DNA of 64,000 bases from contig OZ241920.1 of NCBI GenBank assembly GCA_965203885.1, positions 449,476 through 513,475 on the forward strand, read 5' to 3'. A model generated the notes under the pieces. That model was not told the origin of the DNA. It did no database searches and worked only from the letters and a program-made list of their open reading frames with translations. Positions 6,318 through 57,859 of the stretch are shown piece by piece. Both the position numbers and the translations under genes were made by a program. This DNA is from a bacterium (GTDB taxonomy: Bacteria > JAAXHH01). Each line of letters opens with the position of its first letter. The stretch's first letter is position 1.

Positions 6318-6396
6318 CGCGGCGGCTCAGGGGTTCCGGTTTTCGGCGGCTCAGGGGTTCCGGTTTTCGGCGGCTCAGGGGTTCCGGTTTTCGGCG
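6318..6396. repeat. 24-bp direct tandem repeat x3 at a convergent gene junction
   Basis: cggcggctcaggggttccggtttt x3. It overlaps the last codons of the PIG-L gene. Confidence 0.85.
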
Positions 6397-15654: not shown

Positions 15655-15740
15655 CCGGCCGTGTCCGCCCGCGCCAGGCCGGGCCGCCCGCGCCAGGCCG
15701 TGTCCGCCCGCGCCAGGCCGGGCCGCCCGCGCCAGGCCAC
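15655..15740. repeat. 40-bp direct tandem repeat x2 (or 20 bp x4)
   Basis: ccgtgtccgcccgcgccaggccgggccgcccgcgccaggc occurs twice in tandem, immediately upstream of rnpB. Confidence 0.85.
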
Positions 15741-15827
15741 TTCCGGCCGTCCGGCAGTCATTTCTTCGGCCGCCGGGGTTGAACCGCGCCGCGTCCCTGG
15801 TTATATTGTAACTGTAAAACGTCCCAA

Positions 15828-18941: not shown

Positions 18942-18942
18942 C

Positions 18943-19064
18943 GCGGCCGGGGCCCGGCCGACTGACGCGGCGGTGCCCCGATTTGCGGCCGGGGCCTGGC
19001 CGATTGACGCGGCGGTGCCCCGATTTGCGGCCGGGGCCTGGCCGATTGACGCGGCGGTGCCGCC
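18943..19064. repeat. 42-bp direct tandem repeat x about 2.9 between meaB and the B12-binding gene
   Basis: gcggccggggcc[c/t]ggccga[c/t]tgacgcggcggtgccccgattt repeats at 18943, 18985 and 19027. Confidence 0.85.
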
Positions 19065-31490: not shown

Positions 31491-31550
31491 GGCCGGCCCT
31501 CCAACTTCAAGGGAATCCTGGTGTCTTCAGTCTAGGGTTTCCCGGTTTCT

Positions 31551-33749
31551 TCAGTCGATTTCGCCGTTCTCGTATACGATCCGGATCGCCCGGATGTTCG
31601 CGATCTTGAAGGCGTGCACGTCGCCCTCGGGTATGCGGTGCGCCTCGACGAAGGGCGCGCCCCGGGTCCGCTCGATGCGGATGGGCTTGATCCGGTGCAG
31701 GAAGCTGCGGCTCCGGTTGCCCAGGTAGTAGTCGATGACGGCCCGGTGGTTGTGCCGCACCGCTATTTCCAGGAGCTCCTGAGTCTGCCCAGGGGACAGG
31801 TACTGCAGGTTGCCGGCCTGCTCGATGTGCGGCGCGTTCGCTTCGGTCCCCCCCGATCCCTTGTGCAGCTGGAACCCGGGCAGGCAGTCCCCGAATCCGA
31901 GCACCGGCTTCTGATCGGAAGGAGGACGTGGTGTATGCTCATGCTCCCCGGCCTCGGAGGTACCGCTTCGATCGCCCTGGCCTGCGCGCGGGCCGTTCGC
32001 GTCGGCGGCGTGGTCCCTTTGGCCGGCATGGCCGGCGTTGGGTACCGAAGCGGGGCCCGACAGTCCGAGGACCCCGGACTTCGGCATGTAACCCTGTTTC
32101 TGGAGCAGGTCCATCAGCTCCCGGTACCGCTTGCGCTCCACGATCAGGGCGTCGGGCGCCACCTCGCCCTTTATGTACGGCGCGAGCTCGCCATGGGCCT
32201 TGATGTGGCTGGCGATCTCGGCGCTGGCGGTCCGCAGGAGAAAAGCGTCCATGAAATACACCTGGCCGTAGGCTTCGCCCCACGACTGGATCGAATACGA
32301 AACGTTCTGGGGCACGTCCTTGTCGGAATGGTCCGCCAGGAAAGCGATGACCTCCTCGCCGGACATGTCCGCGTTGGCGGCCCGGTAGATGGTATTGCGC
32401 GTGACCCGGTAAGTCAGCGCGAAGTCGACCTTCTCGAGGTCGGCGAACCGCTCGAGTCTCTCCCGGATCGCCAGGTCCAGGTCCCTCGGCGCGATGATCT
32501 CGAAGGTCGGCTGGACGATGAAAAACGCGCTCCATGCCTTCTCGTCCGGCCATTCCTGTCCCCCGAACACGTGCCTTCCCGCCGGCGTGATCACCAGGCC
32601 GGCGCCGGACCCGTTCCTGCCGTCGTACCGGCGCAGGAGGCCGATCCATTCGAGTTCGCGCAGCGCGGCGAGGATCTCCGCCCTTTCCTGGTCGCTGAAG
32701 GAATTCGTCTGGATATGGGGCGAGGAACAGGCCAGCACGCAGCGCATGATCTGGTCCAGGTCCACCTGCGCGAATCCCACGCACAGCTGAAGGATCCCGG
32801 GCAGGGCCGACACCGCGGGAGACTGTGCCCGTTCCCTCCCGTGCCAGAAGGCCAGAAGGTCGGCCAGCTTCTCGGAGGTGGACAGTTCCAGCCACGGCTC
32901 GAATTCGACACCGGCGCGGAGGCGCCCGTCCTCCACGCGCGTCAATCCCCGCCAGCGCGCGTACTCCATGACGAAGCCCATCTGTTCCGTGACGTCCTCC
33001 GCCGGGTCCGGCGTGCCGTTCGTCGCCGCTTCCTGCCGCTCCACCATGGCGTCGAGGGCGCGCTTATAGGGCAGTCCCCGGTCCGTGAGCCGCGCCGGAT
33101 TGTGGCGCAGGCCGTTCACGAGGGAGAAGACGTTCCTGACCGCGACGAGGTCCCGGCTCTCGTCTTCCGCCGATCTCGCCGCTTCCGCCTGAAAGAAGCC
33201 CGCCAGCCGGTCCGTGAAGTAGCGGATCAGCATGTCGCGGAGATCTTCCGGAACGATGAAGTCGACGGTGCGGAAAGCGGGGCGCCGCCCGATCACGAGC
33301 GCCCGGGTGAGCAGGCCGTGGAGGTGCTCGTTCAACCGGGCGTTGGCGGGGTTTCTCGTGTCGTAGACCCGTCCCGATTCGCCCGCCGAGAGCACGGCCA
33401 GCAGGACCTCCCGCGCTTCTTCGTCCAGGTCGTCGACGCTTTGATCGATGAAACCGGGCTGGAAGAGCTGGTCCGTGATTTCCCGGATCAGGCGGGCCCG
33501 GGAGATCATGCCGGGCTGCACGCCGAAGGTAAAGGCGATGGTTTTCAGGTCGCCCATGGGCAGAGCGGCGAGGTAGTCCTGGATGATCACGGGTTCATTC
33601 CCACTCGATGGCGAACGAGCGATCTCAACGCTTTGGATATCAAGGGCTTGCTTGTAAGCGGACGGAACGAACGAGGTCGACCATCTGCTGGCGGAAGGCC
33701 GCCGGACAGGTACCATGGCATCCGGGCACGTGGCACTCCTTATAACCAT
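31551..33749 (-). CDS. large conserved hypothetical soluble protein (732 aa), function unknown
   Basis: Intact 732-codon ORF with coding-like composition. It has no TM segment or P-loop. The C-terminal about 90 aa (VIDYYLGNRSRSFLHRIKPIRIE...FKIANIRAIRIVYENGEID) looks like a small beta-rich ligand or DNA-binding module. It sits 60 nt upstream of sseA on the same strand. Confidence 0.55.
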   Translation of the reverse strand: MVIRSATCPDAMVPVRRPSASRWSTSFVPSAYKQALDIQSVEIARSPSSGNEPVIIQDYLAALPMGDLKTIAFTFGVQPGMISRARLIREITDQLFQPGFIDQSVDDLDEEAREVLLAVLSAGESGRVYDTRNPANARLNEHLHGLLTRALVIGRRPAFRTVDFIVPEDLRDMLIRYFTDRLAGFFQAEAARSAEDESRDLVAVRNVFSLVNGLRHNPARLTDRGLPYKRALDAMVERQEAATNGTPDPAEDVTEQMGFVMEYARWRGLTRVEDGRLRAGVEFEPWLELSTSEKLADLLAFWHGRERAQSPAVSALPGILQLCVGFAQVDLDQIMRCVLACSSPHIQTNSFSDQERAEILAALRELEWIGLLRRYDGRNGSGAGLVITPAGRHVFGGQEWPDEKAWSAFFIVQPTFEIIAPRDLDLAIRERLERFADLEKVDFALTYRVTRNTIYRAANADMSGEEVIAFLADHSDKDVPQNVSYSIQSWGEAYGQVYFMDAFLLRTASAEIASHIKAHGELAPYIKGEVAPDALIVERKRYRELMDLLQKQGYMPKSGVLGLSGPASVPNAGHAGQRDHAADANGPRAGQGDRSGTSEAGEHEHTPRPPSDQKPVLGFGDCLPGFQLHKGSGGTEANAPHIEQAGNLQYLSPGQTQELLEIAVRHNHRAVIDYYLGNRSRSFLHRIKPIRIERTRGAPFVEAHRIPEGDVHAFKIANIRAIRIVYENGEID

Positions 33750-33916
33750 AAGAAGTTACATGTCCGTCAAACCGGGTCAACTCCATTCTCACGGGGATGG
33801 GGCAACGGCGGGAACCCCTTGTCTGTCTGCCCGCAGCAACAGCCTTCGCAGAACACGATCTGCCCGAGCACCTCGCCACGGTTCGTAGCCAGTGGTTCGT
33901 GCTTGGCGAGGGTTAC

Positions 33917-34070
33917 GCGGATGCGTTGCGTTTGAGCGTTCACGCTTGTTGTGCTTCCTGCGCTTGTTGCGCGCGATGACGACGTTTCGCGGATGCGTTG
34001 CGTTTGAGCGTTCATGCTTGTTGTGCCTGTTGTGCTTGTCGTGCGTGTTGACGTTTGCGGATGCGAATCA
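33917..34070. repeat. roughly 70-bp direct tandem repeat x about 2.2 overlapping the 3' end of the PepSY gene
   Basis: gcggatgcgttgcgtttgagcgttca[c/t]gcttgttgtgc occurs at 33917 and 33989, with a partial copy at 34057. Confidence 0.8.
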
Positions 34071-35556
34071 GGCGTCGCCAGGAGACGACAACTGCGGTTG
34101 AAGAGAACAGGAATCCGGCGCCGCACAACGCGATCACCACCAGATCCCAGGCGGGGCGATGGTCGATGAGAACACGGAAATCCAGGCTGTGAAGGCCATT
34201 GTACAGCCAGCGGCGCGCGCGTCCTGTCTCAGTGAGTTGGTTAATCAGCTCACCGGTGGTGAGGTCGATGTGGTACCAGGTGGCGTTGGCATCATCGAAG
34301 CGCACCCGCAACACGGGCAGCGTACGCCAGCGCTTGTGGTGGGAGTAATAGTAGATATCGTAATCAGTAAGCCGCTCGACCGAGACGGTCCCGTGGCCTG
34401 CCATGACCTGCTTTATTTGCGCGAGGGCGGATTCCTCGAGACGGCCCTGCTCCAATGAAGTCAGCATTTGACGTCGGCCGTCGCCGGCGACGGCGTATGC
34501 GTAGTGCGATTCACCCAGCCATTGCCACACCAGTTCCCGCGTGTCGGGCGGGAGGTCCAGGTTGCGGCCGGGCGACGCGAAGGCTTCATGAGCCAGGTTG
34601 TCTCCGACGGCGGGAGCGCCTTTGTACGCGGCGAGCCGCGCGCTGAAGGGGATTTCATCGTCGAACACCCCCCAGGGGTTCATCGACAGGAGGCCGCTGA
34701 CCAAGTAAGTCGTCAGCGGTACCAGGAAAATCAGCCCCAGGATGTGGTGCAGTTGCATGGTGCCCCGGTAGGGGGTCATCACGTTGCGGCGATAGCGCTT
34801 GCGAAGCCGCAGGCGCACGAAGCCGATCACCGCACCGGAGACAATGGACACCAACCCGGCGAGTGAGAGTACCACGACGACCCAGTGCCAGATCGAGCTG
34901 TGGCGGCGGAGCTGCAGCGGATAGATCCAGTGCAGGTTCGCCCCTAGCCAGTTCCAGCCCCGTTCCAGCGCGCTGGTATCCCGCACCACTTCCCCGGTCG
35001 CCGAAGAGACATACAGTTCGGTGCCCGCCGGATCGTTCAGCGCCACCGAGTGGAGCGGCCGATGGGGATGGAGGCTGCTGGACACGGACCACTGGTCCAT
35101 GAACAGGAGCGCCTGGTGAACCGGTTGCGTCGGCGGGAGGCCCGCCGAGTGGGCAAAAACCCGGCTCGCGTGGACGGCGTCTTCCGCGTCGATTTCGCCG
35201 ATCCTGGCGCCGGTGTCGGCAAACAGGCCATGGCGCGTGCCGTCGCCGGAGCGCAGAAGCCAGGCGGGCCGTCCAAGCACGGAGGTAAGCCGCAGTTCCT
35301 CGATGATCTGCGACGGATCGAGGCGCTGCAACAGGTCGGCCGGGCCGAACCGCAGTTTATCCTGTTCGAGTTCCGGCAGCGCGGCGAGTCGTTCCGCCCG
35401 TGTCAAGGACGGAAATCCCACATACATCATCACCACGCCGGATAAAAACCACATGGCCACGAGCAGGCACATGAAGATCCCGAGCCAGCGGTGGGTGAGG
35501 TAGAGCCAGCGGCGGGTGCGATACAGGCAGTGGCGGATGTTCAAAGCCAGATTCAA
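34012..35556 (-). CDS. PepSY-associated TM helix protein (PiuB-like membrane protein)
   Basis: Topology typical of PepSY_TM proteins (RWLYLTHRWLGIFMCLLVAMWFLSGVVMMY ... four TM helices with HR/HW motifs). Start assigned to a TTG at 35554-35556 that overlaps the WD40 stop as TTGA. The track's 165-codon N-terminal extension overlaps the WD40 gene and is Arg-rich junk. Confidence 0.75.
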   Translation of the reverse strand: MNLALNIRHCLYRTRRWLYLTHRWLGIFMCLLVAMWFLSGVVMMYVGFPSLTRAERLAALPELEQDKLRFGPADLLQRLDPSQIIEELRLTSVLGRPAWLLRSGDGTRHGLFADTGARIGEIDAEDAVHASRVFAHSAGLPPTQPVHQALLFMDQWSVSSSLHPHRPLHSVALNDPAGTELYVSSATGEVVRDTSALERGWNWLGANLHWIYPLQLRRHSSIWHWVVVVLSLAGLVSIVSGAVIGFVRLRLRKRYRRNVMTPYRGTMQLHHILGLIFLVPLTTYLVSGLLSMNPWGVFDDEIPFSARLAAYKGAPAVGDNLAHEAFASPGRNLDLPPDTRELVWQWLGESHYAYAVAGDGRRQMLTSLEQGRLEESALAQIKQVMAGHGTVSVERLTDYDIYYYSHHKRWRTLPVLRVRFDDANATWYHIDLTTGELINQLTETGRARRWLYNGLHSLDFRVLIDHRPAWDLVVIALCGAGFLFSSTAVVVSWRRLIRIRKRQHARQAQQAQQA

Positions 35557-36599
35557 CTGCTGCCCACCCGCCAGACCGTTACGCCGCCCTGCGCGTCGAG
35601 CGCGGCGAGTGCGCGGCCGTCCGGCCGCCAATACAATCCGGAGACGACGTCCGCCACGGCCCCGGTCCCTATCCGGCCGCCTTTGCCGTCTCGCTTGAGC
35701 GACCACGCAACCACGGCCCCGTCGCGGCCTCCCGATGCCAGGCGCATGGCGCCGGGCGCGAAGGATAGCTTCGTTATGGGCTGAACGTGATACTCCAGGA
35801 CGCCGGGCCGCGTGCCTTCGGGACCCGTTCCCCGGAAGCTCCAGACCGTCACCGCCTCCGCTCCGCCGGTGGCCAGCAGCGTGCCGGTGGCATCGAACGC
35901 CAGGGCCGACGGCTTGTTGGGATATCCGGACATCATGGAGTCCTTCCCCGAGGAGCGACGCCAGAAGTGCACCGAGTTGTCCTGGCTGCCGCAGGCCACG
36001 ATACCCCCGCCCGGACTCAGTACCATCGACACCAGGGATCCCTGCCACTCCAGCGTCTGTTGAGGCTCGCCGGTGTACGCGTCGAAGAACGTGACGCGAC
36101 CGTAACAGGCCGACGCCAGTTCCTCCGCGCTCGACCAGGCGATGGCGCTGACGGTGCTGGGATGATCTTCGGACCGCCAGACCTCCGTGCTGTCCACGTC
36201 ATATACGCGAACCTGCCTGGAGCAGGTGGCCGCCAGCCATTGGCCGTCCGGCGACCACGCCACGTTTTCCACCCAGCCGCTTCCGACGTCGATCGTCCCG
36301 CTTACCTGGCCATCGGCGGCGCTCCAGATCAGGACCCGGCTGTCCTGCCCAGCCGTGGCGAACGTGGTCCCGCCCGGGTGCATCGCCACCGCGAGCAGAC
36401 CGCCCTCATGGATCCCGCGACGTGCCCAGGAGGGCGCGCCGGATTTGCCGTCGAACGCGTAGACACCGCCCGCGGAATCACCGACCATCAGGGCCTCGCC
36501 GCGCAGGCTCCAACCCCCCGCGATGGCGTAGTCGTCGACCGACGCGGACCAACCCCGGCGCAGCGCACCCCTCGAGCTGCCGGCGTTCAGACCAGACAT
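35553..36599 (-). CDS. WD40-repeat beta-propeller protein (cytoplasmic)
   Basis: Repeated GxxDxxVxxW / WS blades across 348 aa. No signal peptide. Overlaps the COG0523 stop by 13 nt and the PepSY start by 4 nt. Confidence 0.8.
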   Translation of the reverse strand: MSGLNAGSSRGALRRGWSASVDDYAIAGGWSLRGEALMVGDSAGGVYAFDGKSGAPSWARRGIHEGGLLAVAMHPGGTTFATAGQDSRVLIWSAADGQVSGTIDVGSGWVENVAWSPDGQWLAATCSRQVRVYDVDSTEVWRSEDHPSTVSAIAWSSAEELASACYGRVTFFDAYTGEPQQTLEWQGSLVSMVLSPGGGIVACGSQDNSVHFWRRSSGKDSMMSGYPNKPSALAFDATGTLLATGGAEAVTVWSFRGTGPEGTRPGVLEYHVQPITKLSFAPGAMRLASGGRDGAVVAWSLKRDGKGGRIGTGAVADVVSGLYWRPDGRALAALDAQGGVTVWRVGSS

Positions 36600-37933
36600 G
36601 CATCGAACCCCTTCCGCATGCTCTGCTCATCGAGATTGCGTCCGATGAAGACGAGCTGATTGCGGCGGGGCTCGTCTCCCCATGGGCGGTCCGGCTGGCC
36701 GTCAAAGAGCATGTGAACGCCCTGGAAGACGAAGCGGCGCGACTCGCCCGCGAGGCTGATGAAGCCCTTCATCCGGAAGATGTCCACCCCCCGTTCCATG
36801 AGCAGTTCACTAAGCCACGCGTTGAGCCGGTCGGGACTGACGTCGCCGTCCCGCTCGATTGCGATCGAGCCCACTTCGTCGTCGTGCTCATGCTGTGCGA
36901 CCCAGGTGCGCTCGGCCTCATGCCCGATGGCCGTGCCTTCCGCGTTCTTCACCTGGAGATCGAACTCATCGGCGGTGTGCTGGGCGAAGAGGCCTACCCG
37001 CTGCCGTGTATCGACTTCCAGGAAGAACGACTTGCGCCCCGGGATATCGAGCTGAAGGTTCACGTGCTTTCCGACAGGAATCTTATCCCCCGGGCTGATC
37101 TGCTCCGCAGGTTCGGCGTACCGCCGCACGCACCACTCCGCGCCCTCGCGGAGGGCAGCGTCATCCGTGTCCTGTTCGGGCACGACGACGAGCGACATCG
37201 CCGGATCAGGCCCTTCAGCGAGGCTGATTTCGTAGCGGCCGGCATCGAGCGAATAGACGCCCGTCCATTCGAAGGGGTATTCCGGCTCGAGGAAGGTGGG
37301 ACGAACCTCGAGCACCTGGTCCAGGTCGAAGGCCTCGAGGTTGAGCACTGTGTCGACGGTGACGTTCGCCCGCTCGCTGCGCACGACTTTCGCCATTCGG
37401 TTCATTTCCCGGAGCCGGGTTTCGAGCCGGTCGAGGGCCTCGTTGTCGACCAGGTCCGTCTTGTTGAGCACCAGGACGTCGGCAAAGGCGATTTGCTCGG
37501 TGCTTTCGTCGCTTCGGCCGAGCTGTTGCTCGATGTGGGCCGCGTCGACGAGCGTGACGATCCCGTCAAGGGCGTACTCCGTGCGAATCTCGTCGTCCAT
37601 GAAGAAGGTCTGGGCGACCGGGCCCGGATCGGCGAGCCCCGTGGTCTCCACCAGCACGTAGTCGAACTTGTCGCGGCGCTTCATGAGATTGCCGAGCACG
37701 CGGATCAGGTCACCGCGCACCGTGCAGCAGATGCAGCCGTTCGACATCTCGAAGATCTCTTCGTCCGCGTCGATGACGAGGGCCTGATCGATGCCGACCT
37801 CCCCGTACTCGTTCTCGATCACGGCGATGCGCTTGCCGTGCTCCTCGGTCAGGATCCGGTTGAGCAGGGTCGTCTTGCCGGATCCGAGGAAGCCGGTGAG
37901 GATGGAAACGGGTACTTTTTGCGGCGTGTTCAT
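36587..37933 (-). CDS. COG0523-family GTPase, putative zinc metallochaperone (CobW/YciC/ZigA-like)
   Basis: P-loop GFLGSGKTT. Metal-binding GCICC (CxCC). NKTD. C-terminal CobW_C-like domain. A His/acidic-rich insertion (AQHEHDDEV). It is adjacent to zur and znuABC. Confidence 0.85.
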   Translation of the reverse strand: MNTPQKVPVSILTGFLGSGKTTLLNRILTEEHGKRIAVIENEYGEVGIDQALVIDADEEIFEMSNGCICCTVRGDLIRVLGNLMKRRDKFDYVLVETTGLADPGPVAQTFFMDDEIRTEYALDGIVTLVDAAHIEQQLGRSDESTEQIAFADVLVLNKTDLVDNEALDRLETRLREMNRMAKVVRSERANVTVDTVLNLEAFDLDQVLEVRPTFLEPEYPFEWTGVYSLDAGRYEISLAEGPDPAMSLVVVPEQDTDDAALREGAEWCVRRYAEPAEQISPGDKIPVGKHVNLQLDIPGRKSFFLEVDTRQRVGLFAQHTADEFDLQVKNAEGTAIGHEAERTWVAQHEHDDEVGSIAIERDGDVSPDRLNAWLSELLMERGVDIFRMKGFISLAGESRRFVFQGVHMLFDGQPDRPWGDEPRRNQLVFIGRNLDEQSMRKGFDACLV

Positions 37934-37976
37934 CTAGTGCTCCTTGGTGAGTGGTTCGTTGGTGAATGGTTTCGTC

Positions 37977-38438
37977 TCAGTCCGCATCGTTTTTCTCCGA
38001 AACGCACTGCGCGCAGGTCCCCAGCAGTTCGACGACCGGCCGCCTGGTACGGAATCCAATCTCATTGCCCGCCGCTTTCAGGCTCATGGCCACGCTGGGG
38101 TCTTCGACCTCGGCCACCTCGCCGCAGTCATCGCAGATCAGGAACTGGCTGGCGTGCGGATGATCCGGATGCGCGCAGCCCACATAGGCGTTCAGGCTCT
38201 CGAGCTTGTGCACCAGGCCCTGGTCGAGCAGGAAATTCAATGCCCTGTAGACCGTAGGCGGCGCGGGATTCCTGACCACGCCGCGCATGCGCTCCAATAG
38301 CTCGTAGGCACTGAGCGGCTTTTCTGATACGCACAGCAGCTCAAGCGCGGCCTTGCGTTGTTCGGTCAACCGCGCGCCGCGCTCACGGCACAGCGCCTCG
38401 GCTCGTTCGAGTACCTGGGAAAGCGTTTTGTTATCCAT
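37977..38438 (-). CDS. zur: Fur-family regulator, most likely Zur
   Basis: Winged-helix N-terminus. Metal sites HPDHPHxxxxICxxC ... CxxC. It lies between znuA and the COG0523 gene. Confidence 0.8.
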   Translation of the reverse strand: MDNKTLSQVLERAEALCRERGARLTEQRKAALELLCVSEKPLSAYELLERMRGVVRNPAPPTVYRALNFLLDQGLVHKLESLNAYVGCAHPDHPHASQFLICDDCGEVAEVEDPSVAMSLKAAGNEIGFRTRRPVVELLGTCAQCVSEKNDAD

Positions 38439-38548
38439 GGGTTTCTCCTCGCCATGCACTTCTTCGTGGCGGCCGGTTGCGAACAGCGGCGATCACGGAC
38501 TGCGGAAATCCTGCGGACAAGACATGTACGCCCGTTCTCCTGAACCGA

Positions 38549-39490
38549 TCAGGCGCCTAAGGCGGCGACTAATGTACGGATGTTGTGCAGCATCATGCCA
38601 AGGTGGGTGCCGGCCGGCCCGTCCTCCCTCGACAGCGCGTCCGAATAGAGCGTGCCGCCGATCCGCGCTCCGGTTTCCCGGACGATCTGGTCGAGCAGGC
38701 GGCGGTCGGAGATGTTGTCGACGAAGACGGCCGGGATCTTTTCCCTTTTTATCTGACGGATCAGCCTGGCGACGTCGCCCGCGGACGCCTCCGCTTCGGT
38801 GCTGAAACCGACCGGCGCATGGAATTCGATGCCATAGGCCGCCGACAGATAGCCGAACGCGTCGTGGGATGTGACCACCTTGCGCCGTTCGGCCGGAAGC
38901 GAATCGACCGCCTTGCGGACCTGTGCCTCCACCGCGTCGATCTCCTCCATGTAGCGCGCCGCGTTGCAGCGATAGATGTCGGCCCCCGCGGGGTCGATCG
39001 CGGCCAGGCCATCGGCGATGTTGCGGACATAGATCCGGGTATTGGCCAGACTCTGCCAGGCATGGGGGTCGATCTCGCCCTGGTCGTGATCCGCCATCCT
39101 GCGGGGTGCGACGCCGGCGGTCGCCGTCACGATGCGTCCCTTGTAGCCGGATGCCTCAGTCAGGCGTTCTATCCAGCCCTCGAAACCCAGTCCATTGATG
39201 ACCAGCAGCCTGGCTCCGGCGACGGCCCGGGCGTCCGCCGGGGTCGGGCGATAGACGTGCGCGTCGGCGTCGGGGCCGACGAGGGTGGTGACGCGTACCC
39301 GGTCCCCGCCTACCTGCCGGACCATATCGCCCAGGATGCTGAAGGAGGCGACGACGTCGACGGCGGCGTGGGCCCGGGCGGTCACCGGCCCCGAAAGGGC
39401 GATCAAGCCGGCGGCGAGTACGTAAGAAAGGACAGCACGTCGGGATATCATGGGATTTCGCTTCAGTTTATGGTGATGTATTGGGATCAT
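38549..39490 (-). CDS. znuA: ZnuA/TroA-family metal ABC transporter substrate-binding protein
   Basis: Cluster 9 SBP fold. The start ATG at 39488-39490 overlaps the znuB stop as ATGA. Tat-like SRRAVLSYVL signal. His-rich extreme N-terminus (IPIHHH). Confidence 0.85.
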   Translation of the reverse strand: MIPIHHHKLKRNPMISRRAVLSYVLAAGLIALSGPVTARAHAAVDVVASFSILGDMVRQVGGDRVRVTTLVGPDADAHVYRPTPADARAVAGARLLVINGLGFEGWIERLTEASGYKGRIVTATAGVAPRRMADHDQGEIDPHAWQSLANTRIYVRNIADGLAAIDPAGADIYRCNAARYMEEIDAVEAQVRKAVDSLPAERRKVVTSHDAFGYLSAAYGIEFHAPVGFSTEAEASAGDVARLIRQIKREKIPAVFVDNISDRRLLDQIVRETGARIGGTLYSDALSREDGPAGTHLGMMLHNIRTLVAALGA

Positions 39491-40362
39491 GCTTCCAGGT
39501 GACGGCGGGGCCTGAGGTGCGTCATGATTACGCCGTCAGGTCCGAAGGAGAGCGAGAACAGATAGAACGCCCCCGCCGTCAGGATGATGGCGGGGCCGGA
39601 AGGCAGACTGGCGTGATAGGACAACAACAGGCCGACGAACCCGCCCAGGAAGGCCGCGAGCATACCGATGACCAGCAGGGGCGTGACGTCGCGCGTCCAG
39701 AACCGGGCGGCGGCGGCGGGCAGGATCATGATCCCCACCGCCATCAGGGTCCCCAGGGCATGAAACCCGCCCACCAGGTTGAGGACCGCCAGGACGAGGA
39801 AGCTGTAATGGGCCACCGGACTCAAGGCGCTGACCGAGCGGAGAAACCCCGGGTCGAAACACTCCATCACCAGTGGCCGGTAGATGATGGCGAGCCCGAA
39901 CAGGGTGACCGTGGCGATACCCGCGACCAGGAATATGGCCGCGTCGTTCAAGGCGAGCACCGTGCCGAACAGGATGTGCAACAGGTCGACATTGCTTCCG
40001 CGCGTCGAGACGATCACGACCCCGACGGCGAGGGAGATCAGGTAGAAGGCGGCCAGGCTGGAATCCTCGCGGGCCACGGTGGTTCGGGCTACCAGTCCGG
40101 AGAGCAAAGCCACCGTCACGCCCGCGATCACCCCGCCGAGCGTCATGGCGCCGAGCGACAGCCCCGCCACGAGGTATCCGAGGGCCGCGCCGGGAAGAAT
40201 GGCATGGGCCATGGCGTCCCCGGTGAGGCTCATCCGCCGCAAGGTCAGGAACACCCCGATGGGGGTCGCCCCCAGCGACAGGGCAAGGCACCCGACGAGG
40301 GCCCTGCGCATGAAGCCGAATTCGACGAAGGGGGCGATAACGGCATCGTACATCACGGACAC
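39487..40362 (-). CDS. znuB: ABC-3 family metal transporter permease
   Basis: 291 aa, eight predicted TM helices, ZnuB/MntB-like. Confidence 0.9.
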   Translation of the reverse strand: MSVMYDAVIAPFVEFGFMRRALVGCLALSLGATPIGVFLTLRRMSLTGDAMAHAILPGAALGYLVAGLSLGAMTLGGVIAGVTVALLSGLVARTTVAREDSSLAAFYLISLAVGVVIVSTRGSNVDLLHILFGTVLALNDAAIFLVAGIATVTLFGLAIIYRPLVMECFDPGFLRSVSALSPVAHYSFLVLAVLNLVGGFHALGTLMAVGIMILPAAAARFWTRDVTPLLVIGMLAAFLGGFVGLLLSYHASLPSGPAIILTAGAFYLFSLSFGPDGVIMTHLRPRRHLEA

Positions 40363-40390
40363 TCCACTGAAAGGACGGAAGTTATGGCGA

Positions 40391-41128
40391 TCATCTCACA
40401 CATACGGCCGCCTCTTCGTCAAAGGCCTCGGTGAGCCGGCGTGCCTGTTCGAGATTCGCCGGAGAAAGCACGTGCTCCGTCGGTCCGGCGGCGATCTGCT
40501 CGCGGGCCAGCAGCAGGGTTTCCGGGAAATCCGTCCGGACCTGGTCCAGGTCGTGTAAGACGGCGACCACCGTCCGCCGCTCCCCGTGCCAGCGACGGAT
40601 GAGTCCTTTGAGATCACGCACCGTCGCCGAATCGATGGACGTGAACGGCTCGTCCAGCAGGATCAGCCGCGCGTCCTGGAGGAGCAGGCGGGCGAACAGG
40701 GCACGTTGCATCTGCCCTCCGGAGAGGGTGCCGATGGGGCGCTTCTCGAAACCACTCAATCCCACGATTTCCAGGGCCTCGCCGATCTTCCGGCGGCCCT
40801 CCCGTCCGAAACGGCGGAAAGCCCCGGTCGTTCGCCAAAGTCCCATGGCCGCCATGTCGTAGACCGAGATCGGGAAACTCTGATCGATTTCGGACTGCTG
40901 CGGAAGGTATGCGATTTCCGACGCATCGATCCCCGTCAACCTGATCTCGCCTCCGAGCGGTGTCAGGCTGCCGACGGTCCCTTTGAGCAGCGTCGACTTT
41001 CCGGCGCCGTTCGGTCCCACCACGGCGACCAGGGCGCCTTCACGGATGGCATAATCGAGATGATGGACCGCGGGGTGGCGGTCGTATCCGAGGGTCAGGT
41101 TATCGAACCGCAGGATCGTACCATCCAT
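40391..41128 (-). CDS. znuC: metal ABC transporter ATP-binding protein
   Basis: Walker A GPNGAGKST, LSGGQ, Walker B. An in-frame upstream extension to 41221 would add (AMSTTP)x4 encoded by the 18-bp repeats. The start is ambiguous. Confidence 0.85.
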   Translation of the reverse strand: MDGTILRFDNLTLGYDRHPAVHHLDYAIREGALVAVVGPNGAGKSTLLKGTVGSLTPLGGEIRLTGIDASEIAYLPQQSEIDQSFPISVYDMAAMGLWRTTGAFRRFGREGRRKIGEALEIVGLSGFEKRPIGTLSGGQMQRALFARLLLQDARLILLDEPFTSIDSATVRDLKGLIRRWHGERRTVVAVLHDLDQVRTDFPETLLLAREQIAAGPTEHVLSPANLEQARRLTEAFDEEAAVCVR

Positions 41129-41136
41129 CGTCGAAC

Positions 41137-41201
41137 TCATAGCGGGTGTCGTACTCATAGCAGGTGTCGTACTCATAGCGGGTGTCGTACTCATAGCAGG
41201 G
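41137..41201. repeat. 18-bp direct tandem repeat x about 3.6 at the 5' end of znuC
   Basis: tcatagc[g/a]ggtgtcgtac x3 plus a partial copy. On the minus strand each copy carries an in-frame ATG. Confidence 0.85.
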
Positions 41202-41354
41202 CCCAGACGACCGCAAACCACAATAGACCGGCGGCGCCGCCGACAAGTGCCAGACGGGCTACGATGCCGGCCCGCAGGGGAGAGAATCCGGATTTATTCA
41301 TTAATTGCGACATGACAATACGCGCGAGTAATCGAGGCGCCGCTCACCTTACGA

Positions 41355-41445
41355 GGCGCCGCCCACGGTTTGGGGCGCGGCCCACAGTCCGTGCCGCCGC
41401 CCACCGTTTGGGGCGCGGTCCACAGTCCAGCCGCCGCCTACCGTT
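41355..41445. repeat. roughly 36-bp direct repeat x about 2.5 between the NicO-like gene and znuC
   Basis: gccgcccac[g/c]gtttggggcgcgg[c/t]ccacagtcc repeats. Confidence 0.75.
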
Positions 41446-42479
41446 TACAAATCCACTATATGATTCAGTACAAAGGACGCGTTCAGCGCCCACAGTCCCA
41501 TAAGCAACAGTAGGGCACCGCCCACCGCGCCCAGGCCGGCGGCCGCGAGTGTCCACAACGGCGACCGGTGCGCGACCATCTCACTCGCCAGGTCTCGCGC
41601 CTTCGTCGCGATAACGGCCAGGGTTACGATGGTGATCGCGGTACCTGTGGACATGGCGATAACGGAAAGCGCGCCATGCCAGATCAAATCCATCACGGCG
41701 GCAATGACCAGCACGAACACCGCTCCGGTGCAAGGGCGCAGTCCAATGGCCAGCACCAGGCCGGCCGCCGCGTGCCGGCTGCCGGCCGTATCTATCTCGG
41801 CAGCGCTCGGCAGATGCCGGCAGCTGCCACCTTCCCCTTCCGCTTGATCGGCATGGTCGTGGCGGACTTCGCCGGGTTCGCCCCGCAACTGGCGAACACA
41901 CGCGGGCACGGCGCGCGCGGCGCGTATCAGCAAGTAGAGTCCGACCAATGCCAGCATGGCGAAACTGACTCGCGTAGCCCACAAGGATGCGGATTCCGTC
42001 TCAATCGGCAGCCGACCAGCCAGACCAATCGGAACGTAAACAATCAACAGCGCCGTCACGCCTTGCAGAAACGCAGCTGCCGCGCCCATGGCGATACCGC
42101 GGTTCAGCCGGCTTCGATGGGTCATCAGGTAGGTCGTCAGCACGACTTTCCCGTGCCCGGGCCCCGCGGCGTGCAAGACCCCGTAAACAAAGCTCATCAG
42201 CACCAAAGCCCAGCCGACGCTGTTCTGGCCGCGCATCGAGCCCAGCTCCTGCGTCAGTTGCAGGAGGAATTCGTTCTGCTTTGTCCAGATCCAGGTCGCC
42301 GTCTGATCCCAGATCGCAACCGCCTGTGGGGTGCCGGCGAGACTTTCAGCGCTGGGTTGTCCGGCGTCGACAGGCTCGCCCGGCAGCATCGTTGTCGCGT
42401 AGAGATCCGCCGAGCATGCGATGGCGCATAGCCATGCGAGACAGACTGCCATGTACCCACTCACGCGCATCATATGCAT
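41445..42479 (-). CDS. NicO/RcnA/HoxN-family metal-cation permease with signal peptide and His-rich loop
   Basis: The family signature HAAGPGHGK. A second half-site motif. His-rich loop HDHADQAEGEGGSCRH. Start set at the ATG cluster MHMM at about 42479. The track start at 42551 lies inside the 34-bp repeat leader. Confidence 0.75.
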   Translation of the reverse strand: MHMMRVSGYMAVCLAWLCAIACSADLYATTMLPGEPVDAGQPSAESLAGTPQAVAIWDQTATWIWTKQNEFLLQLTQELGSMRGQNSVGWALVLMSFVYGVLHAAGPGHGKVVLTTYLMTHRSRLNRGIAMGAAAAFLQGVTALLIVYVPIGLAGRLPIETESASLWATRVSFAMLALVGLYLLIRAARAVPACVRQLRGEPGEVRHDHADQAEGEGGSCRHLPSAAEIDTAGSRHAAAGLVLAIGLRPCTGAVFVLVIAAVMDLIWHGALSVIAMSTGTAITIVTLAVIATKARDLASEMVAHRSPLWTLAAAGLGAVGGALLLLMGLWALNASFVLNHIVDL

Positions 42480-42510
42480 CGAACAGTCACCTTTAAAACA
42501 AACGGAATGC

Positions 42511-42630
42511 CGGGTCATCGCCGATCGCTTCATTGCAGCCAGTCGGGTCATCGCCGATCGCTTTCATTGCAGCCAGTCGGGTCATCGCCGATCGCTTTCA
42601 TTGCAGCCAGTCGGGTCATCGCCGATCGCT
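42511..42630. repeat. 34-bp direct tandem repeat x about 3.6 in the 5' leader between the Zur box and the NicO-like start codon
   Basis: cgggtcatcgccgatcgctttcattgcagccagt occurs at 42511, 42544 and 42578, with a partial copy at 42612. Confidence 0.9.
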
Positions 42631-42634
42631 GACT

Positions 42635-42654
42635 GTAATGTTATAACATAACAA
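42635..42654. promoter_or_regulatory. Zur box (perfect palindrome ATGTTATAACAT within TGTAATGTTATAACATAACA)
   Basis: A 12-bp perfect inverted repeat matches the core of the proteobacterial Zur consensus (GTTAT-A-ATAAC). It lies immediately downstream of the -10 of the promoter at 42664-42691. Confidence 0.7.
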
Positions 42655-42663
42655 AACAGACAC

Positions 42664-42691
42664 ATAATAGCATGTCGAGATTCGTTGTCAA
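42664..42691 (-). promoter_or_regulatory. sigma-70-type promoter TTGACA-N16-TATTAT driving the Zur-controlled minus-strand cluster
   Basis: Minus-strand TTGACA (complement of 42686-42691), a 16-nt spacer, then TATTAT (complement of 42664-42669). The Zur box starts 10 nt downstream of the -10. Confidence 0.55.
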
Positions 42692-42765
42692 GCCCAAGAT
42701 TAAATACTGCGTTAAAAAAGGCTGCCCGTGGAGGGTCATTCGTGCCGGCAAAGTACCCGCCTGAC

Positions 42766-42791
42766 ACAAAAAAGCCGCTCTTACGAGGGCT
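42766..42791 (-). terminator. candidate rho-independent terminator downstream of guaA
   Basis: Minus-strand AGCCCTC-GTAA-GAGCGGCT hairpin followed by TTTTTT (complement of 42768-42773). Confidence 0.4.
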
Positions 42792-42868
42792 GATCAGATA
42801 TTCGATGTAATCAGGTGCGGGGCGTTGCTGGAGGTGGGTTCAGTTGCCGGGCGTTGCTGGAGGTGGAA

Positions 42869-44410
42869 TCACTCCCATTCAATGGTGCCGGGCGGCTTGG
42901 AGCTGAGGTCGTAGACCACGCGGTTCACGCCCCTTACTTCGTTGATGATGCGGTTTGACACGTGCGCGAGGAAGTCGGCGGGCAGACGGGCCCAGTCTGC
43001 CGTCATGAAGTCCAGCGTGGTCACCGCACGGAGGGCGATGACGCGCTCGTAGGTCCGGGCGTCGCCCATTACGCCGACGGTCTTGACCGGGAGCAGCACG
43101 GCCAGCGCCTGGGAGACCTCGCCGTAGAGGCCCGCCGCGCGCAGCTCGTCGATGAAGATCTTGTCCGCGTCCTGCAGCATGGCCACCCGTTCCCGGGTCA
43201 CTTCCCCCAGCACGCGGATGCCCAGGCCCGGTCCGGGGAAGGGATGCCGGTCGATGATCTCGTCCGGCAGGCCGAGCTCCCGCCCTACGGTGCGCACCTC
43301 GTCCTTGAACAGGTTTCGGACCGGCTCCAGCAGTTCGAGTTCCAGGTCGTCGGGCAACCCGCCCACGTTGTGATGGGTCTTGATGACGCTGGCCGGTCCC
43401 TTCACGGAGGCGCTTTCGATCACGTCGGGGTAGAGCGTGCCCTGGGCCAGGATGCGCACGCCGCGCAGGGAGGTCAGTTCGCTTTCAAGCACCCGGATGA
43501 ACTCGTCCCCGATGATCCTGCGCTTCTGCTCGGGTTCCTCCACGCCTTTCAGCCGGTCGAGGAACCGGTCCGATGCGTCCACGAAGCGGAAGCGGGCGTT
43601 GATGGTCCGGCGGTAGGTCTCTTCGACCTGCCTGGCCTCGTCCTTCCGGAGCATGCCCGTGTCCACGAAGACACAGGTCAGACGGTCCCCGATGGCCCGG
43701 CCGATCAGCGCGGCCACGACCGAGGAGTCCACGCCGCCGCTCGCGAAACAGGCCACGCGCCGCTCGCCCACGGTCTCCCGGATGGAGGCCAGGGCCTCGT
43801 CGATGAAGGTCCGCGGCGTCCAGTTCCCCTCACAGCCGCATATGGCGAATACGAAGTTCTCCAGGATCTCGCGGCCATGAACCGTGTGCACCACTTCGGG
43901 ATGGAACTGCACGCCGTATATCCGTCGATCGGGCCGGGCGACGGCGGCGATGTGTCCGTTGTCGGATCGGGCGATGACGTCGAAATCCGGCGGCGGCGCC
44001 TTGAGCTCGTCGCCGTGACTCATCCAGACCGTCATCCGTTCGGGCAGGTCGCGGAACAGGGGCGTGCCGCCCGTCGTCCGGATCCCCGCGTTACCGTATT
44101 CCCGGGTCCCGGCGTGGGCGACCTCGCCTTCGTGGTAATGCCCCATCAACTGCAGGCCGTAGCAGATCCCCAGGATCGGCCTGCCCGTCTCGAATATGGC
44201 GGGATCGGGATGGGGCGCATCCTTTCCGTATACACTGGCCGGGCCGCCCGACAGGACGATGCCGGTGACGTTGCGTTCCGTTAATTCGGACGCCGGCGTG
44301 TCGTAGGGGAGCACCTCGCAGTAGACGTGGCTTTCCCGTATGCGCCGCGCGATGAGCTGCGTGTACTGCGCGCCGAAATCGAGGATGGCAATCCAGTTCG
44401 AGTCAGCCAT
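42869..44410 (-). CDS. guaA: GMP synthase (glutamine-hydrolysing)
   Basis: GATase1 with catalytic Cys (GICYGLQLM). The PP-loop SGGVDSSV. C-terminal dimerisation domain ending GTIEWE. Confidence 0.95.
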   Translation of the reverse strand: MADSNWIAILDFGAQYTQLIARRIRESHVYCEVLPYDTPASELTERNVTGIVLSGGPASVYGKDAPHPDPAIFETGRPILGICYGLQLMGHYHEGEVAHAGTREYGNAGIRTTGGTPLFRDLPERMTVWMSHGDELKAPPPDFDVIARSDNGHIAAVARPDRRIYGVQFHPEVVHTVHGREILENFVFAICGCEGNWTPRTFIDEALASIRETVGERRVACFASGGVDSSVVAALIGRAIGDRLTCVFVDTGMLRKDEARQVEETYRRTINARFRFVDASDRFLDRLKGVEEPEQKRRIIGDEFIRVLESELTSLRGVRILAQGTLYPDVIESASVKGPASVIKTHHNVGGLPDDLELELLEPVRNLFKDEVRTVGRELGLPDEIIDRHPFPGPGLGIRVLGEVTRERVAMLQDADKIFIDELRAAGLYGEVSQALAVLLPVKTVGVMGDARTYERVIALRAVTTLDFMTADWARLPADFLAHVSNRIINEVRGVNRVVYDLSSKPPGTIEWE

Positions 44411-44481
44411 TTAAGGGAGTTCAAAGGGATGGAATGCCGGGCGTCGTGAACCGTATGAACAGGTTGTGGAATATACGCCGT

Positions 44482-46953
44482 TCAACGTGCTTCGTCCAGC
44501 GTAGAAAGTAGTTTTTCAAGGGCGTTCTCACCCGAAGTCACCCGGAGTTCGATATCCACCGCGGCCAGGTGGTTGACGATGGCGTGGTCCGGCGGGATCC
44601 GTACGGCGTCCTTCTCCGTCGTGACGATGCATTCCGCGCCCGATCCTTCCGCCAGGGACACCGCCCGGTCCAGCTCGGAAGGGGTGAAGGGGTGGTGATC
44701 CGGGTAGGCCAGGACCCGGGTCACGCGTGCCCCGGCATCGGCGACCGTTCGCGCGAAGGAGGCGGGATTGGCGATACCGCAGAGGACAAGGACGTTGCGT
44801 CCGGCCAGCCACTCCACCGGCAGCGTCCCGTCGTCCGAAGACAGCGTCCCGTCGTCCGAAGACAGCGTCCCGTCGTCCACCAGCCGCCGCAGTCCCGCGG
44901 GGTGGTAGACTGTTTCGATCAGGGCCAGGTGGGGGAATTCGCCCTTGATGCGCGCCGTATCTACAACCGCGGAACGGGCCTGGTCCGTCCGTGTCAGGAC
45001 CAGTGCGTGTGCCCGGCCGAGCGAGGATGCCGGTTCGCGGAAGGGACCCGCCGGGAGCAGGCTCACGGGGGACAGCCGGTTGGACGCGTCGTGTACCACG
45101 ATGTCTATCTCGCGGCCGGTCCTCCGGTGCTGGAATCCGTCGTCCAGAATCAGCACGTCCGCGCCATGCCGGTCAATGGCCAGCCGTCCCGACGCGGTGC
45201 GGCTCGGGCCTACGATCACCGGCACGTCGGGAAGCGCCGAGGCCAGGAAGGCCGGTTCGTCGCCGACTTCCTGCCAGGTGGCGCCCGGTGCAGCGGCCCG
45301 GGTCGCGCGGGAGTTTCTTCCGTAGCCCCGGCTCAGGACGGCGGGCCGGTAACCGGCCTGCTTCAGCCGGCCGGTGAGGAATCGCACCACGGGCGTCTTG
45401 CCCGCGCCGCCCGCGGTCAGTGCGCCGACGCTGACCACTGGGACAGAAAGCCGGTCGGAATCCATCAACTTCATGTCGTACAGACAGTTGCGGAGCCTGA
45501 CCACCATACCCATCAGCAGGGACGGGGGGAGGAGCGCGGTGCGCATGAGACGAATGCCCGGGGCGCGCTCGCCGGGGTCCATCAGCCGGGTAATGAACGG
45601 GGTGCCTTGCGGGAAGCGCGACGGATAGCTCGACGAGTAACGCGATGTGTAACGCGGCAACCCGGATTCGCTTAGATCCGGGTCCAATATCCACCTGTCG
45701 ACCAGGTCCAGGGTGCGGTCCACGGCCCTCGAGCTTTCGCGTACGGCCTGGCCGGCGGCCGCACCCGTCCGCGCACGCTTCTGCGGGTCTTCCAGCAATT
45801 CGAGCCATTGCCTTGCGAGTTCGTCGCCGTCGCGTACGACCAGGCCTCCGCCGGTTCGCAGCAGGGCCGCCTCGCTTGCCCGGACGTTCTCGGTGTGGGG
45901 GCCGAACAGAACCGGTATGGAGCAGGCCGCGGGCTCCAGCAGGTTGTGCCCGCCGAGGGGGACCAGCGTGGCGCCGACGAAGGCCATGTCCGCGGCGGCG
46001 TACATGGCCGAAAGTTCGCCCATGGTGTCCAGGATGATTACATCGAAATGGACGGGGTCCCGCGTGTCCTGGCGGGTTCGGTGGGCGTACGCGAGTCCCG
46101 CCCCCCGCAGCATCTCCTCTACCTCCGGTACGCGGTTGAGATGCCGCGGCGCCCAGATCAGCCTTACCTCGGGATGCCGTTCGTGGACGCGGGCGAAGGC
46201 CGCCAGGACGGCTCTTTCCTCTTTCACGGGCCGGGGGCATCCCGCCATGATCACCGGTACGGACGCGGAGAGGCCGAGTTCACGGCGCAGCGCTTCTCGC
46301 CCGGGGCCCGCCTGTTCGGCGGCCAGGTCGAATTTTACGTTGCCCGTCACCCGCACCCGTTCCGGGTCCGCGCCATAAGCGATGAGCCGTTCACCGTCGA
46401 GCGCATGCTGGACACCCACGGCGGCCAGGCGCCGCAGCATGTGCCTGAACAGCGGTCTCACGAAACGGTTCCGCGCGAGACTGCGGTCCGACATGCGGCC
46501 GTTGACCAGGGCTACGGGGCAGTCGTGGGCGGCGGCCGCCTCGAGCATACCGGGCCAGAGTTCCCCCTCGAGCAGAATCAGTGCGCGGGGGCGTACCCGT
46601 CCGAATACGCGGCGGACGATGAACGGCGCGTCGAGGGGCGCCAGTCCGTGATACCGTGCCTGCCTTACATGCTGCCTGACATAGGCCAGGCCGGTCTCGG
46701 TCGTGGTGGTCACCAGCACGGCGAAACCGGGATGACGCTCCACGAAGCGGCTAACCACGGCCGCCAGGCCGGTGGCCTCGCCCACGGAGGCGCAGTGGAA
46801 CCAGACGACAGGGCGATTCTCGTCATCGTCGATTAGCGGCCGCTGGCCGAGCCGCTGGCGCATCCCGTAGCAGTCCAGGATGGACAGGCAGGCCAGGACC
46901 GGAGAGAACAGCACGGTCAGCGTGGAATAGAGCAGGATGTAGATTAAGTTCAT
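44482..46953 (-). CDS. bifunctional Kdo transferase (WaaA/KdtA) - tetraacyldisaccharide 4'-kinase (LpxK) fusion
   Basis: The N-terminal half has the WaaA signature WFHCASVGE. The C-terminal half has the LpxK P-loop VVSVGALTAGGAGKTP. The linker contains DDGTLSSDDGTLSSDDGTL from an in-frame 21-bp x3 repeat (about 44820-44880). Confidence 0.85.
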   Translation of the reverse strand: MNLIYILLYSTLTVLFSPVLACLSILDCYGMRQRLGQRPLIDDDENRPVVWFHCASVGEATGLAAVVSRFVERHPGFAVLVTTTTETGLAYVRQHVRQARYHGLAPLDAPFIVRRVFGRVRPRALILLEGELWPGMLEAAAAHDCPVALVNGRMSDRSLARNRFVRPLFRHMLRRLAAVGVQHALDGERLIAYGADPERVRVTGNVKFDLAAEQAGPGREALRRELGLSASVPVIMAGCPRPVKEERAVLAAFARVHERHPEVRLIWAPRHLNRVPEVEEMLRGAGLAYAHRTRQDTRDPVHFDVIILDTMGELSAMYAAADMAFVGATLVPLGGHNLLEPAACSIPVLFGPHTENVRASEAALLRTGGGLVVRDGDELARQWLELLEDPQKRARTGAAAGQAVRESSRAVDRTLDLVDRWILDPDLSESGLPRYTSRYSSSYPSRFPQGTPFITRLMDPGERAPGIRLMRTALLPPSLLMGMVVRLRNCLYDMKLMDSDRLSVPVVSVGALTAGGAGKTPVVRFLTGRLKQAGYRPAVLSRGYGRNSRATRAAAPGATWQEVGDEPAFLASALPDVPVIVGPSRTASGRLAIDRHGADVLILDDGFQHRRTGREIDIVVHDASNRLSPVSLLPAGPFREPASSLGRAHALVLTRTDQARSAVVDTARIKGEFPHLALIETVYHPAGLRRLVDDGTLSSDDGTLSSDDGTLPVEWLAGRNVLVLCGIANPASFARTVADAGARVTRVLAYPDHHPFTPSELDRAVSLAEGSGAECIVTTEKDAVRIPPDHAIVNHLAAVDIELRVTSGENALEKLLSTLDEAR

Positions 46954-57624: not shown

Positions 57625-57859
57625 GGAACAGGGCGGGAGTCCGGGTCGATCAGCGTTTACACAGGGACTGGTCCGGCTGATATCACCGGCGTGGGCGACA
57701 TCACCGGCCAGGGCGATACCACCGAACCACGGTATACTTTATCATTATACCCCATTTGCGAATCCCAAAACAGTTTTTTGAACCGGCTGGTCAATCCGCC
57801 GGCCGCGGGGGCTTCGGCGGGCAACCCTCGCTACCGGGCAACCCTCGCTACCGTGGATG

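Follow-up and report, generated by a model that had tools for sequence, protein, structure and literature searches.

In gamma-proteobacteria, transcription of zinc-uptake genes is shut off by the zinc-loaded repressor Zur, which occupies a palindrome at their core promoter; the operators of znuA/znuCB and ykgM in E. coli and Y. pestis are 9-1-9 or 23-bp palindromes (GAAATGTTATANTATAACATTTC) that overlap the -10 element (PMC2706843). Boxes of 18 bp have been described from alpha-proteobacteria, with the consensus GTAATGTAATAACATTAC in the Agrobacterium group and GATATGTTATAACATATC in the Rhodobacter group (Panina et al. 2003, quoted in PMC2706843), and Zur of P. denitrificans has been shown to bind a palindrome of this kind in front of aztA, a COG0523 gene and zur/znuA (PMC5387054). 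Here we analyze a stretch of 64,000 nucleotides (nt) of bacterial DNA (contig OZ241920.1, positions 449,476 to 513,475), referred to below as the window, in which a zinc-uptake gene cluster on the minus strand is preceded by a sigma-70-type promoter, a putative Zur box and a 5' leader with a 34-bp tandem repeat. An initial annotation had singled out this combination as a textbook case of Zur repression followed by an unusually long, repetitive leader.

Like the alpha-proteobacterial boxes in the form in which they are quoted, the element is AT-rich and consists of an inverted repeat of 18 bp around the core ATGTTATAACAT, and it likewise fronts a cluster A-I zinc ATP-binding cassette (ABC) importer, a COG0523 gene and zur and is found at very few sites per genome region (PMC2706843, PMC5387054). 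It differs from them in its non-proteobacterial host, in its flanks (GTTAT...ATTAC) and in its position downstream of the -10 element. With the gamma-proteobacterial systems it shares a palindrome at a zinc-uptake promoter and a repressor nearest to the solved structures of X. campestris and E. coli Zur. In contrast to those systems, its half-sites abut within 18 bp, the box would lie at about +6..+23, and all genes are read in one direction as a single operon, where the gamma-proteobacterial znuA and znuCB diverge.

The repeat has two further points of comparison. MIRU-VNTR loci (mycobacterial interspersed repetitive units, a form of variable-number tandem repeat), which lie in operon intergenic regions of Mycobacterium tuberculosis, consist of units of tens of base pairs arranged head to tail, vary among strains and are generally treated as near-neutral markers. 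The array studied here is also non-coding, head to tail and strain-variable in copy number, but its unit is locus-specific within the window and the density of unrelated arrays around it is unusually high. The contingency tracts of Neisseria and Haemophilus are built from 1-7-nt units in a promoter spacer or a reading frame, and their copy number switches expression. Our array resembles them as a slippage-prone, population-polymorphic repeat near a promoter; unlike them, it has 34-bp units that lie between operator and Shine-Dalgarno (SD) sequence, it leaves the distance from -35 to box invariant and it affects no reading frame. Taken together, the evidence described below makes it likely that the locus joins a zinc-repressed promoter of known kind to a leader minisatellite that is probably neutral.

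A predicted Zur-controlled promoter behind guaA

On the minus strand, the guaA stop codon (42869) is followed by a 29-bp duplication, a terminator, an A/T tract, the promoter, the Zur box, the array, GGCATTCCGTTTGTTTT, the SD sequence and the ATG of the first operon gene. The upstream neighbor is GMP synthase (guaA, 42869..44410, minus strand; Pfam GATase and GMP_synt_C), a position kept in all 16 related loci that we retrieved. Its intrinsic terminator (42768..42790, minus strand), as read from the sequence, is a hairpin GCCCUC-GUAA-GAGCGGC followed by U6, and the relatives carry a perfect stem with a T-run at this place; the predicted terminator insulates the promoter, which lies downstream of the hairpin. 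The promoter itself was correctly described in the initial annotation as TTGACA-N16-TATTAT (42664..42691, minus strand). The -35 hexamer spans 42691..42686 and the -10 hexamer 42669..42664, separated by a 16-nt spacer; a TG precedes the -10 as a TGn extension, and the two hexamers match the consensus at 11 of 12 positions. Only two sites in the window reach at least 11/12, compared with none in 30 composition-matched simulations. A conserved A/T-rich tract lies upstream of the -35, at about 42698..42715.

Comparison with the relatives confirms the ATG at 42479..42477 as the start codon, as initially proposed, with an SD sequence AAGGTGA (42493..42487) and a 7-nt spacer, the whole unit at 42477..42493 on the minus strand being conserved. 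This choice follows from the conserved N-terminus M[HQ]MMRVS, the conserved SD sequence and an in-frame upstream stop codon in one relative (L006). An in-frame ATG further upstream (42551), which would give an open reading frame (ORF) of 368 amino acids (aa), was considered and rejected: its frame hangs on a single 33-nt repeat unit and is closed by a stop codon in the relatives, and conservation of the N-terminus sets in at 42479.

The Zur box GTTATGTTATAACATTAC spans 42635..42652 and was assigned from sequence and conservation. It is one mismatch away from the perfect palindrome GTTATGTTATAACATAAC and encloses the perfect 12-bp core palindrome ATGTTATAACAT (42649..42638) that had been pointed out in the initial annotation. 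The core occurs once in the window, even when two mismatches are allowed, and no other site within three mismatches of the 18-bp box was found elsewhere in the window or in shuffled sequences. The geometry of the first description did not hold in every detail. The palindrome stands at some distance from the -10 rather than directly behind it, with 11 nt between TATTAT and the 18-bp box and 14 nt between TATTAT and the core, and neither hexamer is overlapped, in contrast to the textbook operators that overlap the -10. What stands is the reading of the element as a Zur operator at the head of a zinc cluster, on the strength of its conservation, the Zur encoded in the operon and a core shared with Ca. 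Thiodiazotropha.

Conservation was evaluated in two sets of loci. Six relatives (L001-L006; 67-80% identity) came from a scan of genome contigs with the NicO-family protein encoded by the first operon gene. All are metagenome-assembled genomes with conflicting phylum labels (Gemmatimonadetes, Latescibacterota, Caldilineaceae or simply 'bacterium'), and several are, to judge from their isolate names, presumably derived from sponges. A second set of ten contigs (L007-L016), introduced below, belongs to the same species as the window. The Zur box is conserved at the corresponding position in all 16. The six relatives share the order guaA, terminator, promoter, box, leader and NicO-family gene, and in column identities computed across seven lineages (the window and these six) the -35 block reaches 0.99, the Zur box 0.95, the segment from GGCATTCC through the SD sequence to the ATG 0.87, the guaA terminator 0.85 and the -10 hexamer 0.83; the segment between -10 and box drops to 0.22 and the variable leader to 0.30. 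Conservation in the intergenic region peaks at the -35 region, the box and the SD/ATG. The consensus of the box over the clades is the perfect palindrome GTTATGTTATAACATAAC, from which every clade departs by one base. Metagenome contigs scanned with the NicO-family protein and with a promoter-plus-box DNA pattern gave no match.

Beyond these relatives, the box agrees with the quoted Agrobacterium-group consensus at 16 of 18 positions and with that of the Rhodobacter group at 15 of 18, both being alpha-proteobacterial consensuses compared here with a host that is not a proteobacterium; its 12-bp core is identical to the Rhodobacter-group core as quoted. In the gamma-proteobacterial Ca. Thiodiazotropha, GATATGTTATAACATATC, with the same core, lies 47 nt upstream of a homologous operon of the order DUF1826-DUF1826-DUF1007-NicO-znuCBA-zrgA.

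The cognate repressor is encoded within the operon. Gene identities were obtained from Pfam and NCBIfam searches, and the regulator was also compared with solved structures. This 160-aa protein of the Fur family (37977..38459, minus strand; PF01475) has as its closest solved relatives Zur of X. campestris (7DH7, 6e-34) and of E. coli (4MTD, 6e-32), with Fur and PerR at about 1e-12. Among NCBIfam models it scores highest with Zur PRK11639, although its 135 bits do not reach the equivalog cut-off of 167 bits. By its sequence relationships it is a proteobacterial-type Zur.

The palindrome might also be the operator of another regulator, or a chance palindrome in AT-rich DNA, in which case the promoter would not respond to zinc. 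Its place downstream of the -10, less typical than an overlap with -10 or -35, would fit such an explanation. On the other hand, the box is unique in 64 kb, where none would be expected by chance, all 16 related loci and a distant homologous operon retain it, it matches the Zur consensus sequences as quoted, and it precedes zinc-uptake genes and zur itself. We regard a different regulator or a chance origin as very unlikely, and the interpretation of the box as a predicted Zur operator as well supported.

What the sequences show directly is the promoter elements and how well they are conserved, the cognate repressor and the set of genes; from these we infer a start site, Zur binding, a blocking step and a transcript as follows. 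The strong promoter just past the guaA terminator would drive the genes for the NicO-family protein, a 40-aa protein, the AztABC/ZnuCBA importer, Zur, the COG0523 protein, a WD40 protein and the PepSY_TM protein. When zinc is sufficient, Zur would bind GTTATGTTATAACATTAC, whose center lies about 15 nt past the predicted start, and block open-complex formation or promoter escape; the box would span the predicted start or sit just downstream of it, still inside the region expected to be covered by polymerase. When zinc is scarce, Zur would leave and the operon, including zur, would be transcribed.

This makes the locus a comparatively supported predicted Zur site for an uncultured sponge symbiont, probably of the Fibrobacteres-Chlorobi-Bacteroidetes (FCB) group, that could seed the prediction of a Zur regulon in this lineage.

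Copy-number variation of the leader array

The leader array (42511..42630) was delimited with Tandem Repeats Finder as a 34-bp unit in 3.6 copies (98% matches, score 233). Its units measure 34, 34 and 33 nt and are followed by a 16-nt partial one, the third lacking a single A. The initial annotation had placed about 120 nt of perfect repeats between operator and start codon; the array is there, and near-perfect describes it better. Compared with the leaders of all six relatives, the window is exactly 68 bp, or two units, longer. The relatives have about 1.6 degenerate units, in other words two half-repeats of about 16 nt that are 34 nt apart.

To follow the array within the species we used a 90%-identity cluster of 12 NicO sequences, from which the ten contigs L007-L016 were retrieved; their NicO proteins are 92-100% identical. 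One record, P0128, on a contig of 3.93 Mb, encodes a NicO protein identical to that of the window. In these contigs the array is present at 1.6, 2.6 or 3.6 copies, corresponding to one, two or three full units plus a partial one of 15-16 nt. The distance from the box to GGCATTCC changes with it, from 55 nt in L010 to 88-90 nt in L007 and L011-L015 and 122-124 nt in the window, L008, L009 and L016, while the distance from -35 to box is 31 nt in all 11 alleles. L010 illustrates the change most directly: its NicO-family protein is 3 aa off that of the window and it matches the window fully in the promoter region and the leader flanks, yet its array has 1.6 copies. In L015, two units have a private variant in common (GGATGCAAC), which points to an independent recent duplication; in L009 and L013 the units have diverged from one another within the array. 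The differences in copy number, together with shared and diverged unit variants, show repeated gain and loss of units, with some multi-copy alleles being old. The comparison of copy number among related genomes bears out the earlier suggestion that the repeat is slippage-variable, and with its head-to-tail, highly identical units and a copy number polymorphic within the species, the array can be classed as a minisatellite, or variable-number tandem repeat.

As short-read assemblers can collapse or expand tandem repeats, and most of the same-species contigs are short-read metagenome assemblies, the array or its copy-number differences might be artefacts of assembly. However, the array covers just 120 bp and should fit within an ordinary short read, if usual read lengths are assumed; the alleles differ in unit variants as well as in number; separate assemblies agree on the leader allele (L011 with L012, L013 with L014); the record names of L010 (1.6 copies) and L016 (3.6 copies) look like those of long-read assemblies; and the window matches a single contig of 3.93 Mb. 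An artefact is highly improbable.

We propose that the ancestral leader had two direct repeats of about 16 nt, 34 nt apart (1.6 units), which became identical in this species. Replication slippage or unequal exchange between them would then add or remove whole units and yield the alleles with 1.6, 2.6 and 3.6 copies, that of the window being a recent gain of two units.

Possible regulatory roles of the leader

It had been suggested initially that the repeat adds post-transcriptional control. One form of this idea sees the leader as a structured RNA that regulates in cis and is assembled from repeated modules, for instance a riboswitch, an attenuator or a platform for protein binding. The length of the leader, about 178 nt counted from the predicted start, and the layout of about 1.6 units kept in the relatives would agree with this. 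However, a search of Rfam at E<=1 over 40000..45000 gave no match in the leader, and at gathering thresholds RNase P was the sole match in the whole window, at another place. The leader folds no better than shuffled sequence (z-score of the minimum free energy +0.48), and the alifold consensus of the relatives' leaders is weak (-3.99 kcal/mol), with one clade-level compensatory pattern only, so that neither a family match nor a stable covarying structure of a leader RNA was found. The low conservation of the variable leader and the coexistence of alleles with 1.6 to 3.6 units also speak against it, and we consider a structured RNA largely refuted and a most doubtful explanation.

Another possibility is that the array acts as a tuning or contingency element, with copy number shifting mRNA stability, translation or elongation and setting the expression of zinc uptake for each symbiont population. 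In its favor, members of the species differ in copy number, arrays persist whose units have diverged (L009, L013), and in the weak consensus fold the ACC of a GAUGACC present in each unit can pair with the SD sequence at its GGU. Against it, the array lies outside promoter spacer, operator and SD sequence and therefore leaves promoter geometry and reading frame unchanged. The layout is not that of a phase-variation locus, as the array lies between operator and SD sequence, and the SD sequence and start codon are the same across alleles. In partition-function predictions from 1.6 to 6.6 copies, accessibility stays at 0.60-0.63 for the SD sequence and 0.46-0.54 for the start codon. Two specific pairings were considered: an anti-SD interaction GAUGACC / AGGU...U was ruled out by the unchanged SD accessibility, and a within-unit hairpin UCGG / CCGA is broken by unit variants that bring no compensation. 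Neighboring arrays, moreover, vary equally without an apparent role, as described in the next section. Tuning by copy number is unlikely on this evidence, and the proposal of post-transcriptional control by the repeat found no support in RNA family, folding energy, consensus fold or accessibility. Most likely, the array has little or no regulatory effect.

Several points weigh against our interpretation of the locus as a Zur-repressed promoter with a neutral leader repeat. The box begins 2, 5 or 11 nt past the -10 depending on the lineage (11 in the window), and with this variable distance and a position downstream of the -10 the exact geometry of repression is uncertain. All same-species contigs keep the array, and the diverged units in L009 and L013 indicate that multi-copy alleles persist, something that either neutrality or weak selection would allow. 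The ancestral half-repeats seem to co-vary between clades, reading GATTAC/GATGAC(C) (GATKAC) in one and ACAACC/ACAACC in the other; gene conversion between them or a shared constraint could account for this. The co-change is seen in the leaders of L001-L006, for example at 2926..2975 in L006 and 366..415 in L003. Finally, the folding predictions leave room for an influence by way of RNA decay, bound proteins or transcript elongation.

Tandem arrays across the window

The initial annotation had called a long repetitive leader atypical. The repeat is not peculiar to this leader; this genome is full of such arrays. Counting arrays with a score of at least 50, the window holds 31 distinct ones in 64 kb (4.8 per 10 kb), many with copies that are 95-100% identical. 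A sample of E. coli has one array in 50 kb, composition-matched simulations have 0-1 each, and the relatives' loci have 5 in about 40 kb; the density in the window is about 25 times that of the E. coli sample. In 23 of the 31 arrays the period is divisible by three, as expected for arrays tolerated inside genes. Further examples are located at 2425..2484, 6320..6398, 10084..10253, 15657..15738, 18939..19061, 44821..44878, 54238..54338 and 57818..57853. The 34-bp unit has no second copy within three mismatches in the window and is for this reason locus-specific there rather than one of a dispersed family.

Three other arrays of the locus also vary among strains. Just past the guaA stop, a 29-bp duplication in 1.9 copies (42811..42866) lies in a segment that measures 74 or 127-128 nt among same-species contigs. 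A 38-bp (19-bp) array starts at the NicO stop (41352..41446), and the distance from this stop to the following small ORF ranges from 55 to 208 nt within the species. An 18-bp array in 3.8 copies (41130..41200, minus strand) encodes MSTTPA three times at the N-terminus of the ABC ATPase and differs by one unit within the species (140 versus 158 nt). Given the 31 arrays in 64 kb and these three variable neighbors, the leader repeat appears as one case of a general duplication habit. The array would be a local instance of genome-wide short tandem duplication, sited in the least constrained stretch of the leader.

A broader possibility is that short tandem duplications arise unusually often in this lineage and that its repeats tune expression or protein sequence, with the copy number in the leader setting zinc-uptake expression. 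The leader array would then be one of many repeats generating standing variation across host populations. We consider this quite unlikely as a whole. For the leader, the result is mainly a caution that a striking leader repeat need not be regulatory. The genome-wide tandem-array habit, whose abundance and polymorphism in this symbiont lineage were sampled here, is the more interesting lead, with regard to the mutational mechanism, the typing of symbiont strains and possible consequences for proteins, as in the case of the MSTTPA repeats that begin ZnuC.

Some additional observations concern these arrays. The segment after guaA has been duplicated independently in several lineages (L002, 2639..2733; L003, 142..192), and the L002 copy includes the last guaA codons. 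L006 has a 19-bp array in 3.5 copies after the NicO stop, at the matching place. Each 18-bp unit of the ATPase array carries an ATG, and gene callers set the start past the array. At 59573..59912 and 60995..61144, arrays that repeat every 72 bp (24 codons) with 82% identity look like coding sequence of the leucine-rich-repeat type; such eukaryote-like proteins are common in sponge symbionts. The bacterial RNase P RNA of class A (15825..16201, plus strand; 274 bits) has a perfect 39-bp array in 2.1 copies directly upstream (15657..15738).

The operon, its host and its origin

All genes of the operon lie on the minus strand. The first encodes a NicO-family membrane transporter of 344 aa (41445..42479; PF03824, E = 2e-24), homologues of which adjoin znuCBA in many genomes. 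It is followed by a hydrophobic small ORF of 40 aa, MSQLMNKSGFSPLRAGIVARLALVGGAAGLLWFAVVWALL (41191..41313), whose stop codon overlaps the start of znuC (ATGA). By tblastn this ORF is found in all related lineages and in Ca. Thiodiazotropha (68% identity there); it is called as a gene in L013 and L014, and it matched no family. The transporter consists of an ABC ATPase (AztA/ZnuC-like, 40391..41194; MSTTPA x3 at the N-terminus), an ABC permease (AztB/ZnuB-like, 39487..40362) and a periplasmic zinc-binding protein (AztC/ZnuA-like, 38549..39490), all assigned with Pfam and NCBIfam. Their best NCBIfam models are AztA, AztB and AztC, of which AztA reaches its cut-off and AztB and AztC fall just below theirs. 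Beyond zur follow a COG0523 GTPase that resembles the zinc metallochaperones CobW, YeiR and ZigA (36587..37933; Pfam, NCBIfam), a WD40 beta-propeller protein with no evident signal peptide (35553..36599; Pfam) and a PepSY_TM membrane protein (34012..36048 by its ORF limits; Pfam), the true start of which is probably near the WD40 stop codon. The gene families named in the initial annotation are confirmed by these searches, with the amendments that its znuCBA scores best as AztABC-like and that the 40-aa ORF between the NicO-like gene and znuC had been missed. As no other promoter-like site and no convincing terminator was found in 31000..42480, a single long transcript covering the whole cluster, as had been proposed, is plausible.

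The host was placed with guaA, for which a look-up of the exact protein found no record. Its closest relatives are members of the lineage down to 72% identity, followed at 58-64% by sequences labelled Gemmatimonadota, KSB1, Calditrichota, Bacteroidota and Acidobacteriota. The host is accordingly an uncultured bacterium outside the proteobacteria and, to go by these labels, probably a member of the FCB group. The NicO-family protein, on the other hand, has relatives of 65-67% identity that are labelled Gammaproteobacteria. The different affinities of guaA and of NicO, Zur and box suggest that the whole operon, repressor and operator included, may have arrived by horizontal transfer.

A eukaryote-like WD40 propeller gene inside a zinc operon is a further feature of the cluster; it overlaps the COG0523 gene by 13 nt. 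An identification of its product as an AztD-type zinc chaperone was considered and dropped, there being no AztD among its solved-structure matches. At the far end of the operon, a 72-bp array in 2.2 copies (33767..34065, minus strand) spans the PepSY_TM stop codon and enters a small downstream ORF with a Cys-rich motif (FCEGCCCG).

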